Shown here in pieces: positions 2,215 through 62,806 of a DNA stretch of 64,000 nucleotides (position 1 is the stretch's first letter; every line of letters begins with the position of its first letter). Where the stretch lies: the IMG/VR virus record IMGVR_UViG_3300021963_000047, positions 1 through 64,000 of that record, one strand, 5' to 3'. The stretch is from a virus. The position numbers and the translations under genes were made by a program. The notes under the pieces are model-generated. The model was not told the DNA's origin. It saw nothing but the letters and a program-made list of their open reading frames with translations, and made no database searches.

Positions 2215-2291
2215 GCCCATGTAGCCCAATCGGCAGAGGCAGGAGACTTAAAATCTCCAAAGTGTCAGTTCGAGTCTGACCATGGGCACCA
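2215..2291 (+). tRNA. tRNA-Leu(TAA), short variable loop
   Basis: GCCCATG/CATGGGC acceptor, GGAGA-CTTAAAA-TCTCC anticodon arm, GTCAG-TTCGAGT-CTGAC T arm, encoded CCA. Confidence 0.92.
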
Positions 2292-2304
2292 ATAACAGGA
2301 GTAT

Positions 2305-2412
2305 ATGATGGCGCATCCGCATAAGAACAGACCGCGTAAGGGTCGTCGTAAAGTAGGTAGCAAGAAGCGTAAAGCTCGTCGCTTGAAGGGCAAGCGTAAG
2401 GGTAAGAAGTAA
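2305..2412 (+). CDS. Very basic 35-aa peptide
   Basis: AGGAG RBS; MMAHPHKNRPRKGRRKVGSKKRKARRLKGKRKGKK; strongly biased CGT/AAG codon use. Confidence 0.75.
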   Translation: MMAHPHKNRPRKGRRKVGSKKRKARRLKGKRKGKK

Positions 2413-2423
2413 ATACTAATATT

Positions 2424-2498
2424 GCGGGTGTGGTATAAGGGTTGTGCCCTAGCCTTCCAAGCTAGTGAAGACCGGTTCGAGTCCGGCCATCCGCTCCA
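2424..2498 (+). tRNA. tRNA-Gly(TCC)
   Basis: GCGGGTG/CATCCGC acceptor, CTAGC-CTTCCAA-GCTAG anticodon arm, TTCGAGT T loop, T discriminator plus CCA. Confidence 0.92.
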
Positions 2499-2515
2499 CT
2501 GAAATAGGAGTTATC

Positions 2516-2992
2516 GTGTCACGTGAATTTAATCTTGATGAAGTCATTCAATTTATTAGTACTTCTTCGCCTACCACATCCATCTATATTGGAGCAGATA
2601 GTGAACGCTACCGTGGTAGGGATGACAAATGGTATGCTGACTACACAGTTGCTGTTGTTGTACACATGGATTCATCTCGAGGCTGTCGTGTCTTCGGAAA
2701 AGTAGATACAGAACGTGACTATGATAAGCGTCATGATCGTCCGGCTGTTCGTCTAATGAATGAAGTATATCGTGCATCTCAGATGTATCTAGATCTATTG
2801 GAAGCAGTTGGTGATCGTCATTGTGAAGTACATCTTGACATCAATCCAGATGAGATGCATGGATCTTCTTGTGTTATTCAACAAGCAACCGGTTATATTC
2901 GTGGTATGTGTGGCTTTGCACCAAAAGTGAAGCCTGAAGCTTTCGCAGCATCTTATGCTGCTGATCGTCTAAAAGAAATTATGGCCAATTAA
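2516..2992 (+). CDS. RNase H-like YkuK (DUF458) family protein
   Basis: IYIGADS, RLMNEVY, EVHLDIN, KPEAFAASYAAD motifs; start moved to GTG 2516 behind AGGAG because the ORF-track start lies inside tRNA-Gly. Confidence 0.8.
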   Translation: MSREFNLDEVIQFISTSSPTTSIYIGADSERYRGRDDKWYADYTVAVVVHMDSSRGCRVFGKVDTERDYDKRHDRPAVRLMNEVYRASQMYLDLLEAVGDRHCEVHLDINPDEMHGSSCVIQQATGYIRGMCGFAPKVKPEAFAASYAADRLKEIMAN

Positions 2993-3002
2993 GGAGAATA
3001 AA

Positions 3003-3701
3003 ATGCAACCATCTATTACAGAAGTAAGAAGCCAACTCATCTATGATGAGGGTCTACGTAACTTTATGCTTAGTGTCTATAACTATATGACATTTGCGCT
3101 TGCAATAAGCGGTCTTGTATCTCTCGGCATTAGCATGAGTCCTGATCTTCTTAAACTTATCTGGACTACAAACTTTAAGTGGATTGCTATGTTCTCTCCG
3201 CTTGCCATGAGTCTTGTATTTGCATTTATGGTCCAGAATATGAGTGCCTATGCTGCTCGCGTATTCTTGGTAGCTTTTGCGGCTGTCATGGGTCTCAGCA
3301 TGAGCTCTATCTTTCTGGTCTTTAAACTTGGAAGCATTGCTCAGGTATTCTTTATTACTGCTGCCACATTTGGTGCTACTTCTTTGTATGGATATACAAC
3401 TAAGCGAGACTTGACTGGCCTCGGCAGTTTCTTGATGATGGGTGTTATTGGTTTGGTCATTGCTGGTCTTATAAATGTATTCCTACAAAGTTCAATGATG
3501 TCTCTTATCATTAGTTGTATTTCAGTCATCGTGTTTACTGGTCTTACAGCTTATGATACACAGAACTTGAAAAATACTTATGATGAACTTGATGAGACCG
3601 AAAGAGATAAGGCAGGTGCTCTTGGCGCTTTCAATCTCTATATCAACTTCATTAATATCTTTATGTCGCTGCTTAATATTCTTGGCGATAAGAAAGAATA
3701 A
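3003..3701 (+). CDS. Bax inhibitor-1/YccA family membrane protein
   Basis: DEGLRNFMLSVYNYM N-terminus, about 7 hydrophobic helices, YGYTTKRDL, AYDTQ, LYINFINIF. Confidence 0.9.
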   Translation: MQPSITEVRSQLIYDEGLRNFMLSVYNYMTFALAISGLVSLGISMSPDLLKLIWTTNFKWIAMFSPLAMSLVFAFMVQNMSAYAARVFLVAFAAVMGLSMSSIFLVFKLGSIAQVFFITAATFGATSLYGYTTKRDLTGLGSFLMMGVIGLVIAGLINVFLQSSMMSLIISCISVIVFTGLTAYDTQNLKNTYDELDETERDKAGALGAFNLYINFINIFMSLLNILGDKKE

Positions 3702-3712
3702 AAAAAAGAATT

Positions 3713-3787
3713 GCGCGAGTAGCTTAAAGGTGAAGCCGGCCGCTCATAACGGTCTGAGTGTAGGTTCGAGTCCTACCTCGCGCACCA
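3713..3787 (+). tRNA. tRNA with CAT anticodon (Ile2 or elongator Met, not initiator)
   Basis: GCGCGAG/CTCGCGC acceptor with paired 1-72, GGCCG-CTCATAA-CGGTC anticodon arm lacking the 3 GC pairs of initiators, CCA. Confidence 0.9.
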
Positions 3788-7141: not shown

Positions 7142-7290
7142 TGTGGAGACTCTGGGCAAAAGCTCTAGGGGAAAAAGCAAGTAGTGATAATAAAGAAGCA
7201 GATTTAATTGCTACTATCAGGACTTTAATTGTCTTGTGCTATATCATAACTAATATGTTTATTGTGGCAGGAGTTATACGACATTGGTGA
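7141..7290 (+). CDS. Small membrane protein of T4-like aquatic phages (49 aa)
   Basis: MWRLWAKALGEKAS...FIVAGVIRHW, translationally coupled to clpP. Confidence 0.7.
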   Translation: MWRLWAKALGEKASSDNKEADLIATIRTLIVLCYIITNMFIVAGVIRHW

Positions 7291-7508
7291 AGTCTTTTGA
7301 GTGGTGGATGGAATGGACAGCCACTGCAGTCTTGATGGTAGGAGTAGCTCTTACCGCTTGGAATATCTATCCATTAAATATCTACTTCAGTTTAGCAGGC
7401 AATTTTGGTTGGCTTGTAGTTGGTTATATGTGGAAAAAGTGGTCTTTGATCATAATCCAGTTTGTTGTTTCAGCACTTTATGTAGCAGGCCTCATTATAA
7501 ATACTTAA
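7284..7508 (+). CDS. Small hydrophobic membrane protein
   Basis: About 3 hydrophobic segments; coupled to neighbours. Confidence 0.65.
   Translation: MVKSFEWWMEWTATAVLMVGVALTAWNIYPLNIYFSLAGNFGWLVVGYMWKKWSLIIIQFVVSALYVAGLIINT
7496..7503 (+). promoter_or_regulatory. T4-type late promoter
   Basis: Exact TATAAATA 17 nt before ATG 7521. Confidence 0.7.
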
Positions 7509-7520
7509 AACGAGGATGCC

Positions 7521-8237
7521 ATGAAACCATTTTACTCATACTTAGAAGAATTGAAGATAAGCCTTCAGTATCATGATGAGCTTAACCCTAAACTATGGAA
7601 TGGTAATAAACTTAAACCAGAAGTCAGAGTAAAACTATTACAGTTTGCCGACGCGTGGGGAGATTATGCGAGCATTCCTAAAAATCTAATTCAAGACATC
7701 ATTATGGTTGGTGGCAATGTCAATTATAATTACACCGACAAGTCAGATATTGATGTGCATATTGTAATTGATAGAAATAAATTAGGTGAGAGAAAGCTTG
7801 TAGATGACTATCTACAGAGTAAAAAAGTTTTATGGACTCTAACACATAATATAAAAGTCTATGGTTATTCTTTAGAACCATACGCGCAAGATCCTGTAGC
7901 ATCCTATCCGAAAGGACAGGGTGTTTTTTCTTTAAAGAATAATAAGTGGATAGTTGAACCTACTAAGGGCTCTTATGATTTCAATAAAGATAAGAATCTA
8001 AAGAAAAAAGTTTCTGACTATATGCATCTTATAGATCATATGATAAAGAGTAAAATGGATGCTGAAGCATTTAGATCTTTAAAAGAAAAGATTAGAGGAA
8101 TGCGTGGCGCTGCTATCGCAAAGGGTGGCGAGTTTAGTCAAGAGAATCTTGTATTCAAAGAACTTCGTAATCGTGGTTACCTTGACAAGATGGATAAATA
8201 TGAAAAGAGCCTGAAGGACAAAGAACTGTCATTGTAA
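7521..8237 (+). CDS. Nucleotidyltransferase (Pol beta superfamily)
   Basis: IIMVGGNVNYNY...SDIDVHI (hG[GS]...DxD) signature. Confidence 0.75.
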   Translation: MKPFYSYLEELKISLQYHDELNPKLWNGNKLKPEVRVKLLQFADAWGDYASIPKNLIQDIIMVGGNVNYNYTDKSDIDVHIVIDRNKLGERKLVDDYLQSKKVLWTLTHNIKVYGYSLEPYAQDPVASYPKGQGVFSLKNNKWIVEPTKGSYDFNKDKNLKKKVSDYMHLIDHMIKSKMDAEAFRSLKEKIRGMRGAAIAKGGEFSQENLVFKELRNRGYLDKMDKYEKSLKDKELSL

Positions 8238-9689
8238 ATGTTTGATTATATATTATGGTTGCTGTTTGGTACAGTATATGGATTCATTATTGGTTTAATA
8301 CCAGTCGCCGGTGCGAGCACTGCGCTTATAACCATATATGGATTCTTAGATTTATTTAGATCAGATCCATATCTACTTGTAGTCTTCACAACTGCCATAG
8401 TAGTTTCTAGCACAATTGGTGATAGTTTTGCCAGTATTGTTCTCAATATACCGGGAGCATCCGGATCTGCAGCAACCATCGTTGATGGCTTTCCTATGGC
8501 TAAAAAAGGTGAAGCAGCTCGTGCGTTAAGTGCTGCTATAACCACATCAACACTAAATGGTTTTATATTTGGTGTTATTGCTCTAGTATTCTTGCCATTC
8601 TATTCTAAAGCAGTATTGTCTTTTGGCATACCGGAACTATTATGTTTTCTTATACTAGCTTTTACTTGTGTTACTTTTATCACAAGCGATAAATGGGTAA
8701 GAGGCATATTTGGTTTATGTCTTGGAATATTTCTTGGCATGGTTGGTCAACATCCAACAACAAATGCTGCTCGTTGGACATTTGATTGGGATTACATAAA
8801 AGCAGGCATTCAAATTATGCCAGTTCTTGCTGGCGTACTTGCATTTCCAGAATTAATTGAAGCTTATAGATCTGGATATAATGCTGCGACTGCAAAGATA
8901 GTTGATGCTAGGAATCAAACTATTCAAGGTGTAAAAGATACATTCATACACTGGAAAGATAGTATTCGCGGTGGCGCTATTGGCGCTTTCATTGGTGTAT
9001 TGCCGGGTGTCGGTGGTGCTGTAGCAGACTGGGTAGCTTATAGTCAAACAGTTGCTCTAAACAAGAATGAAAAGATACCATTTGGTGAAGGCAATATCAA
9101 GGGTGTTATTGGTTGTGAGGGTGCTAATAACTCTCAGAAAGCAACAGGTTATATACCTACTGTCTTATTTGGTATACCCGCTGCACCATTCGAAGCTATC
9201 ATCTTAAGTCTGTTTATCTTAGTTGGTATAGAACTAGGAACACCAAACTTATTAAAAGATATGACATTCTTTAAAGCACTAAACTATAGTTATATGGCTT
9301 CATTGACCATAACTTTTATAGCATCGATGTTCATGATTAAGTACATCACTCTCGTATTTAAGATACCATTTTCAATTTGGTTCTATATACTTTCTGCTCT
9401 TTTAGTATGGAGTTGTGTACAATATACCGGATATTGGGAAGACTATTTTATCTTAGCAGCATTTATTGTTCTTGGATTTTTACTAAAATATTTTAGTATA
9501 AGTAGAGCTGCATTTATTATTGGATTTGTTTTATCAGATCAAATAGAAAAGATGTATTATCAGTATACAACATTGTTCGAATGGTATACTATCTTTACTA
9601 GACCAATTTCATTAACTTTAATAATAGTATCTTTGATACTGGCAATCTATGGAATCTTCTTTAATAAGACAAGGATATCTTACACATGA
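8238..9689 (+). CDS. tctA: Tripartite tricarboxylate transporter large subunit TctA
   Basis: GLIPVAG, IVLNIPGASGSAATIVDGFPMAKKGEAARAL, GVLPGVGG, EGANNS, IPTVLFGIP repeats; polytopic membrane protein. Confidence 0.9.
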   Translation: MFDYILWLLFGTVYGFIIGLIPVAGASTALITIYGFLDLFRSDPYLLVVFTTAIVVSSTIGDSFASIVLNIPGASGSAATIVDGFPMAKKGEAARALSAAITTSTLNGFIFGVIALVFLPFYSKAVLSFGIPELLCFLILAFTCVTFITSDKWVRGIFGLCLGIFLGMVGQHPTTNAARWTFDWDYIKAGIQIMPVLAGVLAFPELIEAYRSGYNAATAKIVDARNQTIQGVKDTFIHWKDSIRGGAIGAFIGVLPGVGGAVADWVAYSQTVALNKNEKIPFGEGNIKGVIGCEGANNSQKATGYIPTVLFGIPAAPFEAIILSLFILVGIELGTPNLLKDMTFFKALNYSYMASLTITFIASMFMIKYITLVFKIPFSIWFYILSALLVWSCVQYTGYWEDYFILAAFIVLGFLLKYFSISRAAFIIGFVLSDQIEKMYYQYTTLFEWYTIFTRPISLTLIIVSLILAIYGIFFNKTRISYT

Positions 9690-10441
9690 CACAATATCAA
9701 GAGTGGAACGGAAGCAGATGGCAATATATGAAAGAGCAAAGCTCTTGGCATTTTGACAACATGAGACCACCAGAACACGGCAAAGATAGTTATACATTTG
9801 TTGGTAACTTTAGATATAGCTTTAAAAATATAATTGAAAAATATATTCCTATTGCACAAGCTAGTACATGGGCAACAAGAAATAATTTTAATCCTAAGAT
9901 TGCATCTGAAGGTTTATATTCTGCATCTGCAGAACAACAAGATCTAATCAGAGTTGGCGCTGATCCTGATCAAGAAATATTTTGTAGAGTAGCAGCAGAT
10001 GATGAACCAGTATTTAAATATATTGCTGAGTATCTTGGTATAGAAAAACCTGCTATAAAATTTCATAATCAAAAGACAGGTCAGATGTTACATTTGCATA
10101 TCGATAATTTTGCTGCTAGACCTGAAAGAGATAATAGTTTTAAAGTTACAGAGATGGATGAGAATCCTGACATCATGCGTAGGTTTGCAATCATGCTTGA
10201 TGACTGGAAATCAGGACAGATATTTCAATTAGGTAATGCTATGTACTGGCAGTGGTCAGCAGGTGATTGTATAACATGGGAGTGGAAAGATATTCCACAT
10301 TGTACAGCAAATATGGGTTGGGACGATAGACCCATGTTACAGATCACTGGATATACTACTAAAAAAACAAAAGATCTATTAGATAAAGCAAAAGATTTAG
10401 GACCATTTTATCATGATATTTCATTTACATCTTTTAAATGA
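9686..10441 (+). CDS. Putative Fe(II)/2OG-type (double-stranded beta-helix) oxygenase
   Basis: LHLHIDN (HxD) ... PHCTANMG (distal H) ... RPMLQITG; paralog of 61835-62806. Confidence 0.6.
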   Translation: MTQYQEWNGSRWQYMKEQSSWHFDNMRPPEHGKDSYTFVGNFRYSFKNIIEKYIPIAQASTWATRNNFNPKIASEGLYSASAEQQDLIRVGADPDQEIFCRVAADDEPVFKYIAEYLGIEKPAIKFHNQKTGQMLHLHIDNFAARPERDNSFKVTEMDENPDIMRRFAIMLDDWKSGQIFQLGNAMYWQWSAGDCITWEWKDIPHCTANMGWDDRPMLQITGYTTKKTKDLLDKAKDLGPFYHDISFTSFK

Positions 10442-11282
10442 AAAAACAAATCAAGTTCATATTCTTAATTTAAAACCATATGATAATTTGTTGGGAAGAG
10501 CATGGTCTTCCCTATTAAAAGAAGCTATTGATAGTAGTAATTGCTGGTTAGTAGAAACAGATAGAATCTATCATGTTAATAATGAATGGTCAAAAGAAAC
10601 TATCATAGAAAAAATGCAACGATGTATTGATATCGTAAACATGTATGACAATATAATTGTTGCAGATTTAACTAATGAAGTTACACAAGAAACAATGAAC
10701 TACTTGCATACTTTCTTCGAGAAACTTAGGGGAAAAGATGAAGCACCACCTCAGTGGTATATCGATGCACCTAGACAAGTTAAAGATGCAGTATCAGAAT
10801 TTAATGTGTTGATTCATCGTTATGAAGCTTATGATAGTATGAATCATCATGCTAAAATTACTGTTGGTTATAAGCATAGACCGACAAGAGAAATGACTCT
10901 TGAAGAAAAGAAATGTTTTAATTTAAATCTTCAACCAGGAGAAATATATTTAAAATATTGTCATAAAGGTAAAGATCTATTAGATGTTTTTAAAGATGAA
11001 GATGAACATATTGGTGATGAGAACATATTACCACAACACAAAATAAGTTCTGACTTTAATATTAATTTTTCTTGGAAAATGCAAGAAAAAAGAAAAGATG
11101 ATTTTTATAAATGGTTAGAAGATAAGAAAACTTTTCTTAAGTCTATAAATATAGACATCGATGATCCTTCTGTAACCATTGGCAGAGGTGTTGTTGGAAA
11201 AGTTCTTCATGAAGATATGGAAGAACTTAGAAAAGAAATATTTGGTGTAACTAAAATTCATGATATAACATATACGGAGTGA
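10413..11282 (+). CDS. Hypothetical protein
   Basis: 289-aa ORF coupled within the tct operon; no family recognised. Confidence 0.75.
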   Translation: MIFHLHLLNEKTNQVHILNLKPYDNLLGRAWSSLLKEAIDSSNCWLVETDRIYHVNNEWSKETIIEKMQRCIDIVNMYDNIIVADLTNEVTQETMNYLHTFFEKLRGKDEAPPQWYIDAPRQVKDAVSEFNVLIHRYEAYDSMNHHAKITVGYKHRPTREMTLEEKKCFNLNLQPGEIYLKYCHKGKDLLDVFKDEDEHIGDENILPQHKISSDFNINFSWKMQEKRKDDFYKWLEDKKTFLKSINIDIDDPSVTIGRGVVGKVLHEDMEELRKEIFGVTKIHDITYTE

Positions 11283-11285
11283 ATA

Positions 11286-12353
11286 ATGAATAGATTATTA
11301 TCGTTTTTCATCGCACTGTTGTTTTCAACTGCGGTTTATGCACAGCAACCATATAGACTAATCGTTCCACAAGAACCCGGCGGTGGTACATCTGTGTGGG
11401 CAAATATTATTGCTCAACACCTTGAGAAGTTTATTGGTACTAAAGTTATTGTAGAACATATTCCTGGTGCAAATGATATTCCCGGTTTTAATAAATTTCA
11501 CAATGAATTGCAGAAAGATCCATATGCAATCATGGTTGCTCATGGCGGTAATGCCGAGAGCTTCTTGACTGATAAAGTCGATTATGATTATAAGTTCTAT
11601 GAACCAATTGGGCTCGTCAATCTAAATATTGTTGTGAGTCATGCTACAAACTTTGATCCTTATAAAGATAAAGTAAAGTTTGGTAGTACTTCAGGCAGAC
11701 GACCAGACGTTATGGCAATTGTCATGATGATTTGTGGTCCACAACCAAACATGGATGCATACATTAAATGCTATAATGACAAGATGATCTTTGTTAAGGG
11801 CATGAAACCAGCAGAAGCCAGACTTGCAGCCCTTCGCGGTGAACTCAATACAGTCAGAGAAACTTATTCATCACATCTCAAGTTTATTGGACCAATGATT
11901 GAGAAGGGTGATTATAAGTTATGGTTCTCACATGGTGTTCTCGATCTTAAGACTGGAAAGATTGTAAAAGATAAGAACTATAATACCAATCACTTCGAAG
12001 ATCTCTATAAGCAGAAGTGGGGTGTAGCACCATCAGGCGAGTTCTATGATGCTTATGTTCTTGTTAAGAACTTTAGAGACGTCTTGCAGAAAAGCTTGTG
12101 GGTCGGTAAGTCTAATCCAAATGCAGAACACATTAGAGCATCAATTAGAAAGATGCTTGCTGATCCTGCGGCAAAGAAAGCTCTTGATGACGACAGCGGC
12201 GATTATGAATGGTTTATTGGTGATGATATGACTAAAGCATATAACATCATTAAGAAGCAGATCAACGAGCAGAGCTTAAAGAATCTTGTAAAGTTTACAC
12301 AAGATGGAATCAAGCTTGAAAGTGTTTATAAGCCAGAACTAATCACTCCGTAA
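11286..12353 (+). CDS. tctC: TctC/Bug-like periplasmic solute-binding protein
   Basis: Signal peptide; LIVPQEPGGGTSVWANIIAQHLEKFIG-VIVEHIPGA matches the Bug/TctC N-terminal signature. Confidence 0.78.
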   Translation: MNRLLSFFIALLFSTAVYAQQPYRLIVPQEPGGGTSVWANIIAQHLEKFIGTKVIVEHIPGANDIPGFNKFHNELQKDPYAIMVAHGGNAESFLTDKVDYDYKFYEPIGLVNLNIVVSHATNFDPYKDKVKFGSTSGRRPDVMAIVMMICGPQPNMDAYIKCYNDKMIFVKGMKPAEARLAALRGELNTVRETYSSHLKFIGPMIEKGDYKLWFSHGVLDLKTGKIVKDKNYNTNHFEDLYKQKWGVAPSGEFYDAYVLVKNFRDVLQKSLWVGKSNPNAEHIRASIRKMLADPAAKKALDDDSGDYEWFIGDDMTKAYNIIKKQINEQSLKNLVKFTQDGIKLESVYKPELITP

Positions 12354-20853: not shown

Positions 20854-21284
20854 AGATTGTCAATGAATGCAAGATGTTTACGCCTGAACAGCTACAGCTT
20901 CTTGAAAAGAAGTATAACGGCAAGTTTGTGTTTGAGAGTTGTCTTAAAAACAAAGATGGTGGCTGGTGTAATTTTCCAGCCGCTATCTTCTACACTGAAG
21001 AAGCACACCCACAAGGTTCGAACTACTTTGCTATCTGGTTTGATGATGCCGGCCATGTCATGATCTCTAATGGTATCACTGCTACTGAACCATTCTATGG
21101 TATTGTTGTTGATGATACAGCATACTACTCTCGCTATCGTCATGACTATAAAGACTATGGTGGTTTCTTCATCGACGGTGGTCGAGACTATTCACGTTTC
21201 GGCGGATCACGTTTTAAAGATATCAAGAGTTGCACAATGAAAGTAGAAAAAGACAAATTAGCTGTTTACAATGTTAGACAGTAG
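20850..21284 (+). CDS. Hypothetical phage protein
   Basis: ATGA overlap; SRYRHDY...FIDGGRDY motif. Confidence 0.75.
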   Translation: MKIVNECKMFTPEQLQLLEKKYNGKFVFESCLKNKDGGWCNFPAAIFYTEEAHPQGSNYFAIWFDDAGHVMISNGITATEPFYGIVVDDTAYYSRYRHDYKDYGGFFIDGGRDYSRFGGSRFKDIKSCTMKVEKDKLAVYNVRQ

Positions 21285-21295
21285 TGGTATAAATA
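21265..21295 (+). promoter_or_regulatory. Composite sigma70/late promoter for tmRNA
   Basis: TTTACA-17 nt-TATAAATA. Confidence 0.65.
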
Positions 21296-21300
21296 ATCAT

Positions 21301-21581
21301 GCTGAGGTCGTTGAGGCGTTCAGAATAAACGTTTCGGACGCGGGGGCAGTACCCGCCGCCTCCACCACAGATACATTCTTTGAGGTCTTGGTCGTTACCA
21401 GCATAGCAAAAACGGCGACAGAGTGTATCTTTGATGGGGGCGAAATAGGATCGACGTGCGTAGTAAAGGTACGAAGAGACCGAAAGCAACGTATAGATGC
21501 AAACGATAATGCACCTTTCGCTATGGCAGTAGCTGCCTAAGCATGAGCTCGGTGGGGAGCTTGGAAACAGAATCCCCACCA
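21301..21581 (+). ncRNA. ssrA: Permuted two-piece tmRNA (alphaproteobacterial type), tag ANDNAPFAMAVAA
   Basis: Acceptor piece first (GCGGG-GGCAGTA-CCCGC-CGCCTCC-ACCA, ends 21367), paired spacer, coding piece from GGGGGCGAAATAGGATCGAC (21436), tag codons 21499-21540; outer ends approximate. Confidence 0.93.
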
Positions 21582-21590
21582 CAGTTTATT

Positions 21591-21667
21591 GGTCACTTAG
21601 CTCAGCAGGATAGAGCAACAGCCTTCTAAGCTGTGGGTCGATGGTTCGAATCCATCAGTGATCACCA
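21591..21667 (+). tRNA. tRNA-Arg(TCT)
   Basis: GGTCACT/AGTGATC acceptor, ACAGC-CTTCTAA-GCTGT anticodon arm, TTCGAAT, CCA. Confidence 0.93.
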
Positions 21668-21683
21668 TTTTAAGGAGCCATAT

Positions 21684-21794
21684 ATGTCTAAGCGTTATGA
21701 TCATTGGTTTTGGAATAGCAGGCTTGTTGATAACATCGCAAGCTTTATCGTAAGGCTAGACACATACATATGGCGTAAGCAATATAATCGTTAA
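21684..21794 (+). CDS. Hypothetical 36-aa protein
   Basis: AAGGAG RBS; MSKRYDHWFWNSRLVDNIASFIVRLDTYIWRKQYNR. Confidence 0.55.
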   Translation: MSKRYDHWFWNSRLVDNIASFIVRLDTYIWRKQYNR

Positions 21795-21801
21795 AATTTA
21801 C

Positions 21802-21893
21802 GGGGGTGGGTGTTGGTACACGGGAGGGCCTTATAATCCCTTTAGCGCCCGATTAGCGTTCTTGACTCGGTTCGAATCCGGGCACCCCTACCA
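21802..21893 (+). tRNA. Atypical tRNA-like RNA, anticodon TAT, long variable arm
   Basis: GGGGGTG/CACCCCT-ACCA, D arm GTGT-TGGT-ACAC, CTTATAA loop, V arm AGCGC/GCGTT, T arm CTCGG-TTCGAAT-CCGGG. Confidence 0.75.
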
Positions 21894-61014: not shown

Positions 61015-61848
61015 ATGGATATTAATGAAGTTAATAAGATTAAATCTACTATAAAAGATAATGTAAATACACAACTATTTAAAAAACCATTTATCGTATT
61101 AAATACATATGGTAAAGATAACGGATCTATAAGATATAAAGATTATGGAAAAGATCCAATCTGTACACATTTAATTCAAATGTTTAATTATGAAGGTATT
61201 AATATTGAATATAAATTCAATGAGTTTGGTTTAAGAGGACCGTCTTTAAAAAACAAAAATAAAAAAATACTTTTTGCTGGAGGTAGTTTTTGTTTTGGAA
61301 CTGGTGTAAATGTTGAGCAAACTTTTCCATATATTATATCAGAACAACTAGATGCAGACTATCTAAATTTGAGTGATGTTGATTCTCTTAGTGAATTAAT
61401 TCCCATATTAAAAGATATAAAAGAAAAATTTAAACCAGATTATTTTATTCTATCTGATACTAGGTTTATCACAGAAATCGGTTGGCTTAGACTCTATATA
61501 TTGGATAGATTTCCAAAACAAAATGAACAAAAACTAGGATGGGAAGCTATAGCCGATAATACCATATTATCAAATGGTGACATTAGAAGATTTGCGCAGC
61601 ATCTATTTGAAAAGACAGACGATGATACATTATTAATGTTTGAAGCTTTTTGTAAAGATCTTTTTGATATTCCTATGATATTTGTTTATTTTAATAGAAA
61701 AAGCTTTGCAAATAAAACTATTGATTTTAAATATTTTAAACAAATAAAATTAGAAGCTAAAGACGTAGTAGATATATCACGAGATAATAATCATCCAGGT
61801 CCATTAACACACAAGATGGTGGCTGATAAAATACTTAAACTTCTATAA
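61015..61848 (+). CDS. SGNH-hydrolase-like protein
   Basis: FAGGSFCFGTG (block I-like) and RDNNHPG (DxxH). Confidence 0.55.
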   Translation: MDINEVNKIKSTIKDNVNTQLFKKPFIVLNTYGKDNGSIRYKDYGKDPICTHLIQMFNYEGINIEYKFNEFGLRGPSLKNKNKKILFAGGSFCFGTGVNVEQTFPYIISEQLDADYLNLSDVDSLSELIPILKDIKEKFKPDYFILSDTRFITEIGWLRLYILDRFPKQNEQKLGWEAIADNTILSNGDIRRFAQHLFEKTDDDTLLMFEAFCKDLFDIPMIFVYFNRKSFANKTIDFKYFKQIKLEAKDVVDISRDNNHPGPLTHKMVADKILKLL

Positions 61849-62806
61849 TAAGATCTTTACTACCATTCTTAATTAATTCTTCTGTTTTTTCTGTTACAAA
61901 ACCAGTCACTTGTAATGTAAATCTTGGTGTATATCCGAAGTTTGCAGTTCCATGTGGCATGTTACACCAATCATATACTAAACATTCTCCAGCATCATAT
62001 TGATGATAGTAAGTATTGCCAAATTGCCATACGTGGCCATAATCCCAATCATTCAATGCTATTAATAGTCTTCTAAGTTTGAGCGGGTTCTTATCTGCAC
62101 CAGCTGCTTTCCATCTATCTCTCCAGTGTGGTCTAGCATATCGCATTTGTTGATCAATATGAAATGGTGTAACTTGTCCTAATAATTGGATATGAATCCT
62201 CATCTGATGTACATCAAAGCCTATAGCTTCTGCCATTCTATGAAAAACTAAGTAATCTTCATGATGATTATTTTTCCAATCTTCTTTACCATCTTTATCA
62301 AAACCAACAAGAGAAACTAAAGAATCATTATACATACAAGATATGTCTTCTTGTCTAGAAGCACGTTTTATATCCAGTAATTCTCCTTCATGAAGATCTT
62401 TATCTTGTTGTGACAAATTTCTAGGTCTGTAGTTGCCTATAGTTTGTTCTTTACAATCATTTAAAGCTTTCTCTAGTCCTTTAGACCAATCACCTTTAAA
62501 CTTACACATGATCTTAAATGTTTCTTCATTTGGATCTGCTTTAGTATTAAAGTGCCAGTTTGATCTTAACTTATTATGATGCCATCTAGAAGGTATACCA
62601 TCAACAGTAAAGACATTCATGTTAGATTCAGAATGTTTCTTTAGTTGCTCATCAGAATACATATCTTCTTGATACTGTGAATCTTCAATGTTTACACCAG
62701 CTTGAAGCTCAGGCACTTTTTCTGGCATATACTCAGATATATTTTGTTTTGAATTCCAATTATATCCTTGATTCTTTATCATTTTGCTTGTATCATACGT
62801 GGTCAT
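61835..62806 (-). CDS. Putative Fe(II)/2OG-type oxygenase, paralog of 9686-10441
   Basis: TPFHIDQ, NDWDYGHVWQFGN, PHGTANFG, RFTLQVTG. Confidence 0.6.
   Translation of the reverse strand: MTTYDTSKMIKNQGYNWNSKQNISEYMPEKVPELQAGVNIEDSQYQEDMYSDEQLKKHSESNMNVFTVDGIPSRWHHNKLRSNWHFNTKADPNEETFKIMCKFKGDWSKGLEKALNDCKEQTIGNYRPRNLSQQDKDLHEGELLDIKRASRQEDISCMYNDSLVSLVGFDKDGKEDWKNNHHEDYLVFHRMAEAIGFDVHQMRIHIQLLGQVTPFHIDQQMRYARPHWRDRWKAAGADKNPLKLRRLLIALNDWDYGHVWQFGNTYYHQYDAGECLVYDWCNMPHGTANFGYTPRFTLQVTGFVTEKTEELIKNGSKDLIIEV

Follow-up and report, generated by a model that had tools for sequence, protein, structure and literature searches.

Why would a virus carry a transporter of the tripartite tricarboxylate transporter (TTT) family, and what would become of the solute that it takes up? 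The question is raised by an operon in the first 64 kb (64,000 nucleotides, hereafter the window) of a 117.6-kb virus record from IMG/VR, IMGVR_UViG_3300021963_000047, whose completeness is estimated at 70%. The operon encodes a TctA-family permease and a TctC-like binding protein, separated by a dioxygenase gene and a gene of a large unnamed family. The reading we favour, with moderate confidence, is a virus-specific two-component TTT importer whose cargo most likely feeds phage tailoring chemistry rather than serving as bulk food. The operon occupies positions 7521-12353 of the plus strand, and its five open reading frames (ORFs) meet at junctions of 0, -4, -29 and +3 bases, which confirms the initial annotation of five abutting or overlapping genes behind a late promoter box:

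7496..7503, plus strand: late box TATAAATA of the T4 type, with a GAGG ribosome-binding site between it and the ATG at 7521
7521..8237, plus strand: Pol-beta-type nucleotidyltransferase-like protein, 238 aa, first gene of the operon (sub-threshold PF01909 match)
8238..9689, plus strand: TctA-family permease, 483 aa (PF01970, E 2.4e-89)
9686..10441, plus strand: Fe(II)/2-oxoglutarate (2OG) dioxygenase, 251 aa, assigned from its predicted fold and invariant residues; unnamed, mostly viral family
10413..11282, plus strand: 289-aa protein of a large unnamed family, called here the 10413 protein
11286..12353, plus strand: very divergent TctC/Bug-type periplasmic binding protein, 355 aa, assigned from profile, relatives and predicted fold

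The permease matches the TctA profile over its full length (positions 1-423 of 423; 300.4 bits against a cut-off of 28.9), and a six-frame search agrees, so that the TctA identity proposed in the initial annotation now rests on a profile match. In the accessible part of a review of the TTT family, the TctA signature is described as a duplicated G-x3-G-x3-G-x2-P-G-x-G in transmembrane segments 1 and 7 (PMC5812351). Both repeats were found, exactly at residues 245-259 and with V23 replacing a glycine at residues 11-25, and G11, G15, G19, P22, G25, G249, G253, P256, G257 and G259 are invariant in seven viral TctA proteins, one of them at 32% identity. A crude Kyte-Doolittle scan (window 19, threshold 1.6) yielded ten hydrophobic segments, which fits the expected ~9-12 helices.

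The binding protein has no Pfam hit at E <= 0.1, and PF03401 (TctC) is absent from all six frames at E <= 10. Its relatives and its fold identify it despite this miss. PF03401 is matched by 11 of 40 family members (best E 9.9e-6), with no other Pfam family matched, and a profile of seven viral homologues retrieved nine PDB sequences, all of them TTT binding proteins (BugE, 2e-5; BugD, 2.3e-5). A structural model was generated using AlphaFold2 (AF2), with a predicted local distance difference test (pLDDT) score of 93.1 and a predicted template modelling (pTM) score of 0.89. Among the Foldseek matches listed, ranks 1-17 are all TTT binding proteins, with E values from 1.5e-11 (BugD) to 1.2e-7 and TM-scores by target of 0.57-0.72; SsuA, at rank 18, is the first match from another family. 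The predicted structure of the 11286-12353 product is the TctC/Bug-type two-lobed class II binding-protein fold, in support of the original TctC-like assignment. The N-terminus, as read from the sequence, is hydrophobic and ends ...VYA-QQ, a feature shared by all seven aligned homologues, and export via an N-terminal signal peptide is predicted. The first loop keeps the motif P-x-x-P-G-x-G-T, which matches the equivalent loop of BugD and BugE in the alignment and in which Q29, G32, G34 and T35 are invariant in 40 sequences. This loop may correspond to the carboxylate clamp described for BugD.

The two genes belong together well beyond this genome. TctA relatives are encoded on 497 IMG/VR stretches; the best 79 loci, which form 42 clusters at 90% TctA identity, were examined, with neighbours counted within the available flanks. 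TctC lies adjacent to TctA in 40 of the 42 clusters (median gap 19 bases), and the contigs of the two clusters that lack it end within 60 bases after TctA. TctA, dioxygenase and TctC follow one another in 6 of 42 clusters, and the complete five-gene order is found in one, that of the window's close relatives. The supposed conservation of gene order in related phages therefore held for the TctA/TctC pair and failed for the five-gene layout: what is conserved is the pair together with a looser shared pool of enzymes, and the gene order of the window is lineage-specific.

The distribution of this clade further sets it apart. The TctC-like family comprises at least 1519 protein clusters (8000 candidates scored), and the dioxygenase family and a sulfotransferase-like family that accompanies TctA in other phages (S1) comprise 293 and 1264; where source names are given, members of these three families are nearly all "hypothetical". 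The binding protein is missing from all cultured phage records, in which TctA has seven matches, at 25-30% identity and none in a T4-like phage. Across prokaryotes (185,579 species, one genome each), three loci were found, each with the same cassette, on contigs of 1.9-11.3 kb from metagenome-assembled genomes (MAGs) of three unrelated families. The cassette is present in 0 of 120 other genomes from the family of one such MAG. Two of these contigs (L028 and L029) hold a few weak PHROG matches (sigma factor, primase-like), content that is by itself no proof of viral nature. The TctA/TctC clade is essentially confined to viral DNA.

The genes that recur around the pair provide the main evidence for the use of the cargo. 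A class I methyltransferase, whose profile matches TehB (E 3.3e-5), is found in 35 of the 42 clusters at a median of 168 bases from TctA, S1 in 27 and the dioxygenase in 26. Less frequent are a second P-loop family, S2 (11), the small membrane protein DUF6552 (9), a fusion of an APS-kinase-like (adenosine 5'-phosphosulfate kinase) domain with a nucleotidyltransferase domain (8), an outer-membrane barrel (4), the 10413 family (3) and the nucleotidyltransferase (2). Sulfotransfer_3 is matched by three of nine S1 members (best E 5.4e-4), and S1 has 0 hits among PDB sequences at E <= 10. The 10413 family also lies within 8 kb of the methyltransferase, S1 or TctA in 8 of 17 more distant viral loci, which were not dereplicated and represent at least four distinct arrangements, such as S1-methyltransferase-10413 runs. 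Because the transporter recurs with the dioxygenase, the methyltransferase, sulfotransferase-like P-loop proteins and the 10413 family, a tailoring role is suggested; this enzyme company and the outer-membrane barrel of some phages suggest a cargo destined for phage chemistry rather than general nutrition.

Several observations on these neighbours are recorded here. The barrel is a signal-peptide protein of ~190 aa ending in Phe (L009 7446-8036, L012 7439-8026, L007 4456-5010), with a weak match to PF13505 (E 3.5e-5, below the cut-off), and in four of the 42 clusters it is encoded between TctA and TctC or next to them; as a predicted outer-membrane channel between TctA and TctC, it would fit uptake from outside. 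The fusion protein, of 283 aa (L007 5070-5921, L028 7350-8183), joins an APS-kinase/KTI12-like P-loop domain (PF01583, E 2.5e-5) to a cytidylyltransferase-like domain. At one locus (L084), two TctA-TctC pairs stand in tandem; the dioxygenase and the APS-kinase-like fusion are each present twice and S1 three times.

The same neighbour counts can be read in favour of nutrient scavenging, in which the pair imports a common organic or amino acid for carbon, nitrogen or energy and the enzymes are unrelated passengers of a variable island. TctA and TctC are the sole near-universal components (40/42), every enzyme partner being dispensable, and in this genome the partner families form an island free of transporter genes. 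Known TTT binding proteins take aspartate, glutamate, malate, citrate and adipate (in part from the accessible text of PMC5812351), all of them ordinary nutrients of this kind. Yet the spacing of the methyltransferase is tighter than random island content would give, and a small set of families keeps recurring beside TctA lineages with only 46-68% identity to that of the window. The binding protein moreover represents a deeply divergent, almost virus-only clade and no recent copy of a host receptor. We consider nutrient scavenging rather unlikely.

Selection on the operon was estimated from dN/dS (the ratio of nonsynonymous to synonymous substitution rates) against relatives at 64-98% protein identity. 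Since dS (0.4-1.5) is near saturation, the following values are rough:

TctC-like binding protein: dN/dS 0.02-0.04
TctA: dN/dS 0.045-0.049
Nucleotidyltransferase: dN/dS 0.04-0.05
Dioxygenase: dN/dS 0.06-0.10
10413 protein: dN/dS 0.11-0.23, the fastest-evolving

All five genes are under purifying selection and maintained.

The most conspicuous gap in the system is TctB. The PF07331 profile has 0 matches at E <= 10 across the 117.6-kb record and, at E <= 1, none in five related viral records, of which three are 99-100% complete; the absence of a TctB gene, noted for the operon in the initial annotation, is thereby borne out for the record and these relatives. A recurrent small multi-helix ORF within ~4 kb of TctA was likewise not found in the 42 cluster representatives, by a crude threshold that scored DUF6552 at one segment. 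In the accessible part of the TTT review, TctB is described as poorly conserved and its function is called unknown, the analogous DctQ being essential in TRAP (tripartite ATP-independent periplasmic) systems (PMC5812351). Given this poor conservation, a very divergent TctB may still be present. The same text reports rare TctAB fusions and archaea with TctA only, and mentions no viral systems. In a different type of viral contig (L016 5115-6956; L017), a 613-aa TctA, 35% identical, is encoded among structural genes with no TctC nearby; its extra C-terminal hydrophobic region of ~130 residues may make it a TctA-TctB fusion.

The missing TctB invites the view that the pair is no importer at all, and that the periplasmic and membrane proteins block or sense a host envelope function or serve superinfection exclusion. 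The apparently late expression described below would suit such a role, as would the strong divergence of the binding protein, which is ~50 residues longer than solved Bug proteins. This reading is nevertheless very improbable: viral lineages keep both TctA repeats unchanged, the match to the Pfam profile is full-length, selection on the TctA and TctC-like genes is strongly purifying, and the outer-membrane barrel completes an envelope-spanning route in four clusters.

DUF6552, encoded just upstream of the operon, was considered as a stand-in for TctB and rejected:

7284..7508, plus strand: DUF6552 small membrane protein, 74 aa (PF20189, E 1e-12)

It is located within 10 kb of TctA in just the nine clusters counted above, and it is also encoded by two cultured phages that lack a TctA match, Pelagibacter phage Mosig and Limnohabitans phage DC31. 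A second copy is encoded ~100 kb away, outside the window (record positions 112474-112701, minus strand). In a 359-kb phage (locus L014), DUF6552 abuts TctA; to that copy the distal one is 68% identical and the window one 26%. The single lead from an Atlas search, to PnuC-like small proteins of viruses, stayed below threshold (score 0.86). DUF6552 is a loose companion of the cassette and, being upstream of the late box, is off the late transcript. A 49-aa ORF with one hydrophobic segment (window 7142-7289) ends on the start of the DUF6552 ORF, which places two small membrane proteins just upstream of the box.

The enzyme between the transporter genes could be assigned from its structure. The 9686 product has no Pfam, PHROG or NCBIfam match. 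Its AF2 model, built on a 32-sequence alignment, has a pLDDT of 87.5, and the best Foldseek matches are prolyl-4-hydroxylase (P4H) and AspH (E 4.8e-6). Using VIA-align, the best 30 matches are all Fe/2OG oxygenases (Z 10.9-9.1, over model residues ~26-227), with 5c5t_A first (Z 10.9, root-mean-square deviation 3.5, 148 residues aligned). H138, D140, H205 and R215 are invariant in the 32 sequences, down to 26% identity. R215 is presumably the ligand of the 2OG C5-carboxylate, judging from its spacing to the distal histidine as in PHD-type enzymes. The predicted fold confirms 9686 as an Fe(II)/2OG dioxygenase of the double-stranded beta-helix (DSBH) type with an HxD...H triad; the initial annotation had called it oxygenase-like and named the lack of a DSBH fold among the findings that would refute its reading. 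At least three paralogues of this family are present in the record, the following one, besides 9686, within the window:

61835..62806, minus strand: dioxygenase paralogous to 9686 (32% identity by tblastn, E 3e-32)

It had been proposed that the transporter imports Fe-citrate, citrate or 2OG to feed the many Fe/2OG oxygenases of the phage. In its favour, the record contains these paralogues and further HxD/HxN cupin-like ORFs, the solved TTT binding protein 5oei contains 2-oxoadipate, and the iron-uptake factor PiuC is among the tied structural matches of the dioxygenase (Z 10.7). Within 1 Z unit, however, PiuC is tied with roughly ten prolyl hydroxylases and other proteins, and the most constant partner of the transporter is the methyltransferase (35/42), not the dioxygenase (26/42). 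Moreover, water contains little 2OG, which is plentiful within cells. Neither sequence nor structure favours citrate, Fe-citrate or 2OG, and this version appears improbable.

A different use of the same enzyme would be sulfur scavenging in the style of tauABCD or atsK: an organosulfonate or sulfate ester would be imported, the dioxygenase would free sulfite or sulfate and, in other phages, the freed sulfur would supply synthesis of 3'-phosphoadenosine-5'-phosphosulfate (PAPS) and the sulfotransferase-like proteins. The dioxygenase profile has a sole match among PDB sequences, the alkylsulfatase AtsK, over the distal His and Arg, and some cassettes carry the APS-kinase-like/nucleotidyltransferase fusion and sulfotransferase-like genes. 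A bacterial TTT system, SlcHFG, is a putative sulfolactate importer according to the accessible parts of PMC5812351 and of the Taurinivorans paper, which describes it in a bacterium and not in a phage (PMC10507020). The AtsK match, at E 0.13, is not significant, and the link to AtsK and TauD was set aside as doubtful, since the best structural matches are prolyl hydroxylases and neither TauD nor AtsK is among the 50 listed. An APS-kinase-like gene is also absent, at E <= 0.01, from the ~70%-complete record. Sulfur scavenging thus seems hardly probable.

The two remaining genes of the operon are less informative. The 10413 family is large (421 clusters at E <= 0.001), and the invariance of N131, H135, E138 and G186 accompanies our view that the protein is probably an enzyme. 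It has no PDB relative (best E 0.09), no match among cultured phages and no Pfam family found in more than one of 42 members; no usable Atlas feature match was obtained, the Atlas model being poor (pLDDT 0.47). Two longer relatives are fused to radical-SAM/SPASM (P0313) or SCP2 lipid-binding (P0366) domains; three of the five relatives above 500 aa have no Pfam hit. The first gene, 7521, matches PF01909 (NTP_transf_2) weakly (E 0.0069, 17.2 bits against a cut-off of 21), with a G-G...D-I-D motif readable at residues 64-79, and belongs to phrog_36119 (E 1.2e-77), a large phage family with no assigned function. At the DNA level, matches among 50,697 GenBank phage records were confined to 10 Synechococcus myoviruses, with this gene alone covered. 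The nucleotidyltransferase gene is outside the conserved cassette.

The wider genome places the enzymes in a second context. The window neighbours include ribonucleotide reductase, PhoH, exonucleases and a baseplate protein, the gene set of a T4-like aquatic myovirus. A permuted transfer-messenger RNA (tmRNA; tag ANDNAPFAMAVAA) and five tRNA genes were identified using ARAGORN at window positions 21271-21631, 2215-3787 and 21591-21893, one of the five being a 94-base tRNA-Ile(tat). Beside baseplate genes, a second island starts at 61835 and extends past the window (61.8-74.5 kb of the record; L030 1336-14084). Of the families that surround TctA in other phages, it contains the dioxygenase (two paralogues), S1 (three genes) and the methyltransferase (two genes); the HxD/HxN cupin-like ORFs, three glycosyltransferase-like genes, a Tyr/Thr/Gly-repeat protein and fibre-like genes are found with them. 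Within the transporter operon, this phage has one dioxygenase and one 10413-family gene, and the remaining families are in this island near virion genes. The earlier description of a self-contained uptake-and-modify module consequently survives in part: the TctA/TctC pair does enclose a genuine dioxygenase, and an uptake-and-modify role, with a link between import and oxygenase that would be read from gene neighbourhood, is plausible, but the module is not self-contained, as the methyltransferase and sulfotransferase-like partners sit 50 kb from the operon, and the choice of cargo is unsupported.

The timing of expression was considered from the promoter box. TATAAATA lies 17 bases ahead of the first ATG, within the 3' end of the DUF6552 ORF. 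Its count in the window is that expected by chance (12 seen, 12.1 expected). Its placement is not: of the 28 boxes in the 117.6-kb record, 12 have the ATG of a same-strand ORF of at least 70 aa no more than 40 nt downstream, where random positions give a mean of 1.07 and a maximum of 5 (2000 trials). Box, spacer and GAGG are identical in 6/6 close relatives, in which adjacent synonymous sites differ; a second TATAAATA at 11144 is not kept in relatives. The late box of the initial annotation, not significant by count, is therefore positionally enriched and conserved, which makes late transcription plausible, and the promoter box predicts that the operon is probably late-expressed. Sigma-70-type promoters in the window are about as frequent as expected by chance (28 seen, 26.2 expected), terminator-like hairpins were set aside because all are within genes (7 seen, 2.6 expected), and among the 22 runs listed no RNA run contains the sequence. 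The gene downstream of the operon is convergent and overlaps its last gene. Over its final ~45 bases, as far as the GGAG that precedes the TctC start (window 11238-11285), the 10413 gene is near-identical in all relatives, and the remainder of the gene is 64-76% identical at the protein level among the same relatives; this conserved end may act in translational coupling or in regulation of the gene for the binding protein.

The following model can be drawn from these observations. The T4-type late promoter would transcribe the five genes as one translationally coupled unit. The TctC-like protein, exported by its signal peptide, would capture a small anionic, probably carboxylate-bearing solute between its two lobes and pass it to TctA for entry into the infected cell, by analogy with the TTT family in a cation-coupled manner. 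With no encoded TctB, the clade would either dispense with this subunit or borrow that of the host. The cargo would most likely be a precursor or co-substrate for phage-specific tailoring.

A number of points weigh against this model. TctB is missing from the record and from five relatives by profile search, and we know of no TTT system proven to function without it. The Pfam TctC model fails to recognise the window binding protein, and the dN/dS values are approximate for the reason given above. Late synthesis of Sec-exported and polytopic membrane proteins would be unusual and would leave little time for uptake. The dioxygenase is absent from 16 of 42 clusters within the available flanks, and the enzymes that accompany the transporter elsewhere lie 50 kb off in this genome and also occur without it; such tailoring enzymes may act on virion proteins or glycans, unrelated to any imported solute.

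More tentatively, the tailoring importer can be extended to a portable pathway of large aquatic phages, in which a TctB-less importer, in some cases with its own outer-membrane channel, would take up one specific dissolved compound and virus-only enzymes (oxygenase, methyltransferase, sulfotransferase-like and 10413-family) would turn it into a product peculiar to the phage, be it a modified metabolite or a virion decoration. We regard this extension as possible but doubtful. If true, it would represent the first virus-encoded binding-protein-dependent secondary transporter with dedicated downstream chemistry, and TctA and TctC would suffice for transport. Independently of this extension, the phage pair provides a natural test of the TctB requirement in TTT transport. 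The system is common, as the 497 stretches and the size of the binding-protein family indicate. The identity of its cargo would reveal a dissolved compound taken up by infected cells in estuarine, marine and fresh waters, and would provide a first handle on the unannotated phage oxygenase, methyltransferase and sulfotransferase-like families that travel with the transporter.

Among known systems, the closest is the TTT family itself (TC 2.A.80; Salmonella TctCBA, Bordetella BctCBA, BugD, BugE, Bug27, MatC, TphC and AdpC), with which the phage pair shares the TctA profile, the repeats and the two-lobed binding protein. It differs in having no TctB, in a binding protein that falls below the Pfam TctC model, in an almost virus-only clade, and in transporter genes split by two enzyme genes behind a phage late promoter. 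Viral tctA itself has been reported: as far as the accessible text goes, a tctA "protein domain hit" with an unknown role in infection was described on SUP05 viral contigs (Roux et al. 2014, eLife, PMC4164917) and is listed in a review table (PMC6359870). In the main texts accessible to a full-text search, supplements excluded, this is the only mention of a viral tctA found (PMC4164917, PMC6359870). That report, in the part available, is limited to a domain hit; it covers neither a binding protein nor synteny or distribution. In the searched literature, no description of a complete uptake system specific to viruses was found.

The operon logic also resembles that of tauABCD and atsK-atsRBC, in which an importer, there an ABC (ATP-binding cassette) transporter, is encoded beside an Fe/2OG dioxygenase of the TauD family that acts on the imported solute. 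The phage dioxygenase is, however, nearer to a prolyl-hydroxylase-like fold, its match to AtsK not being significant. Phage auxiliary genes supply single parts of host uptake systems, as illustrated by the PstS of cyanomyoviruses, a phage-borne periplasmic phosphate receptor that plugs into the ABC transporter of the host. Both cases involve a receptor supplied by the phage; here the permease is encoded as well, and the transporter is a secondary one.

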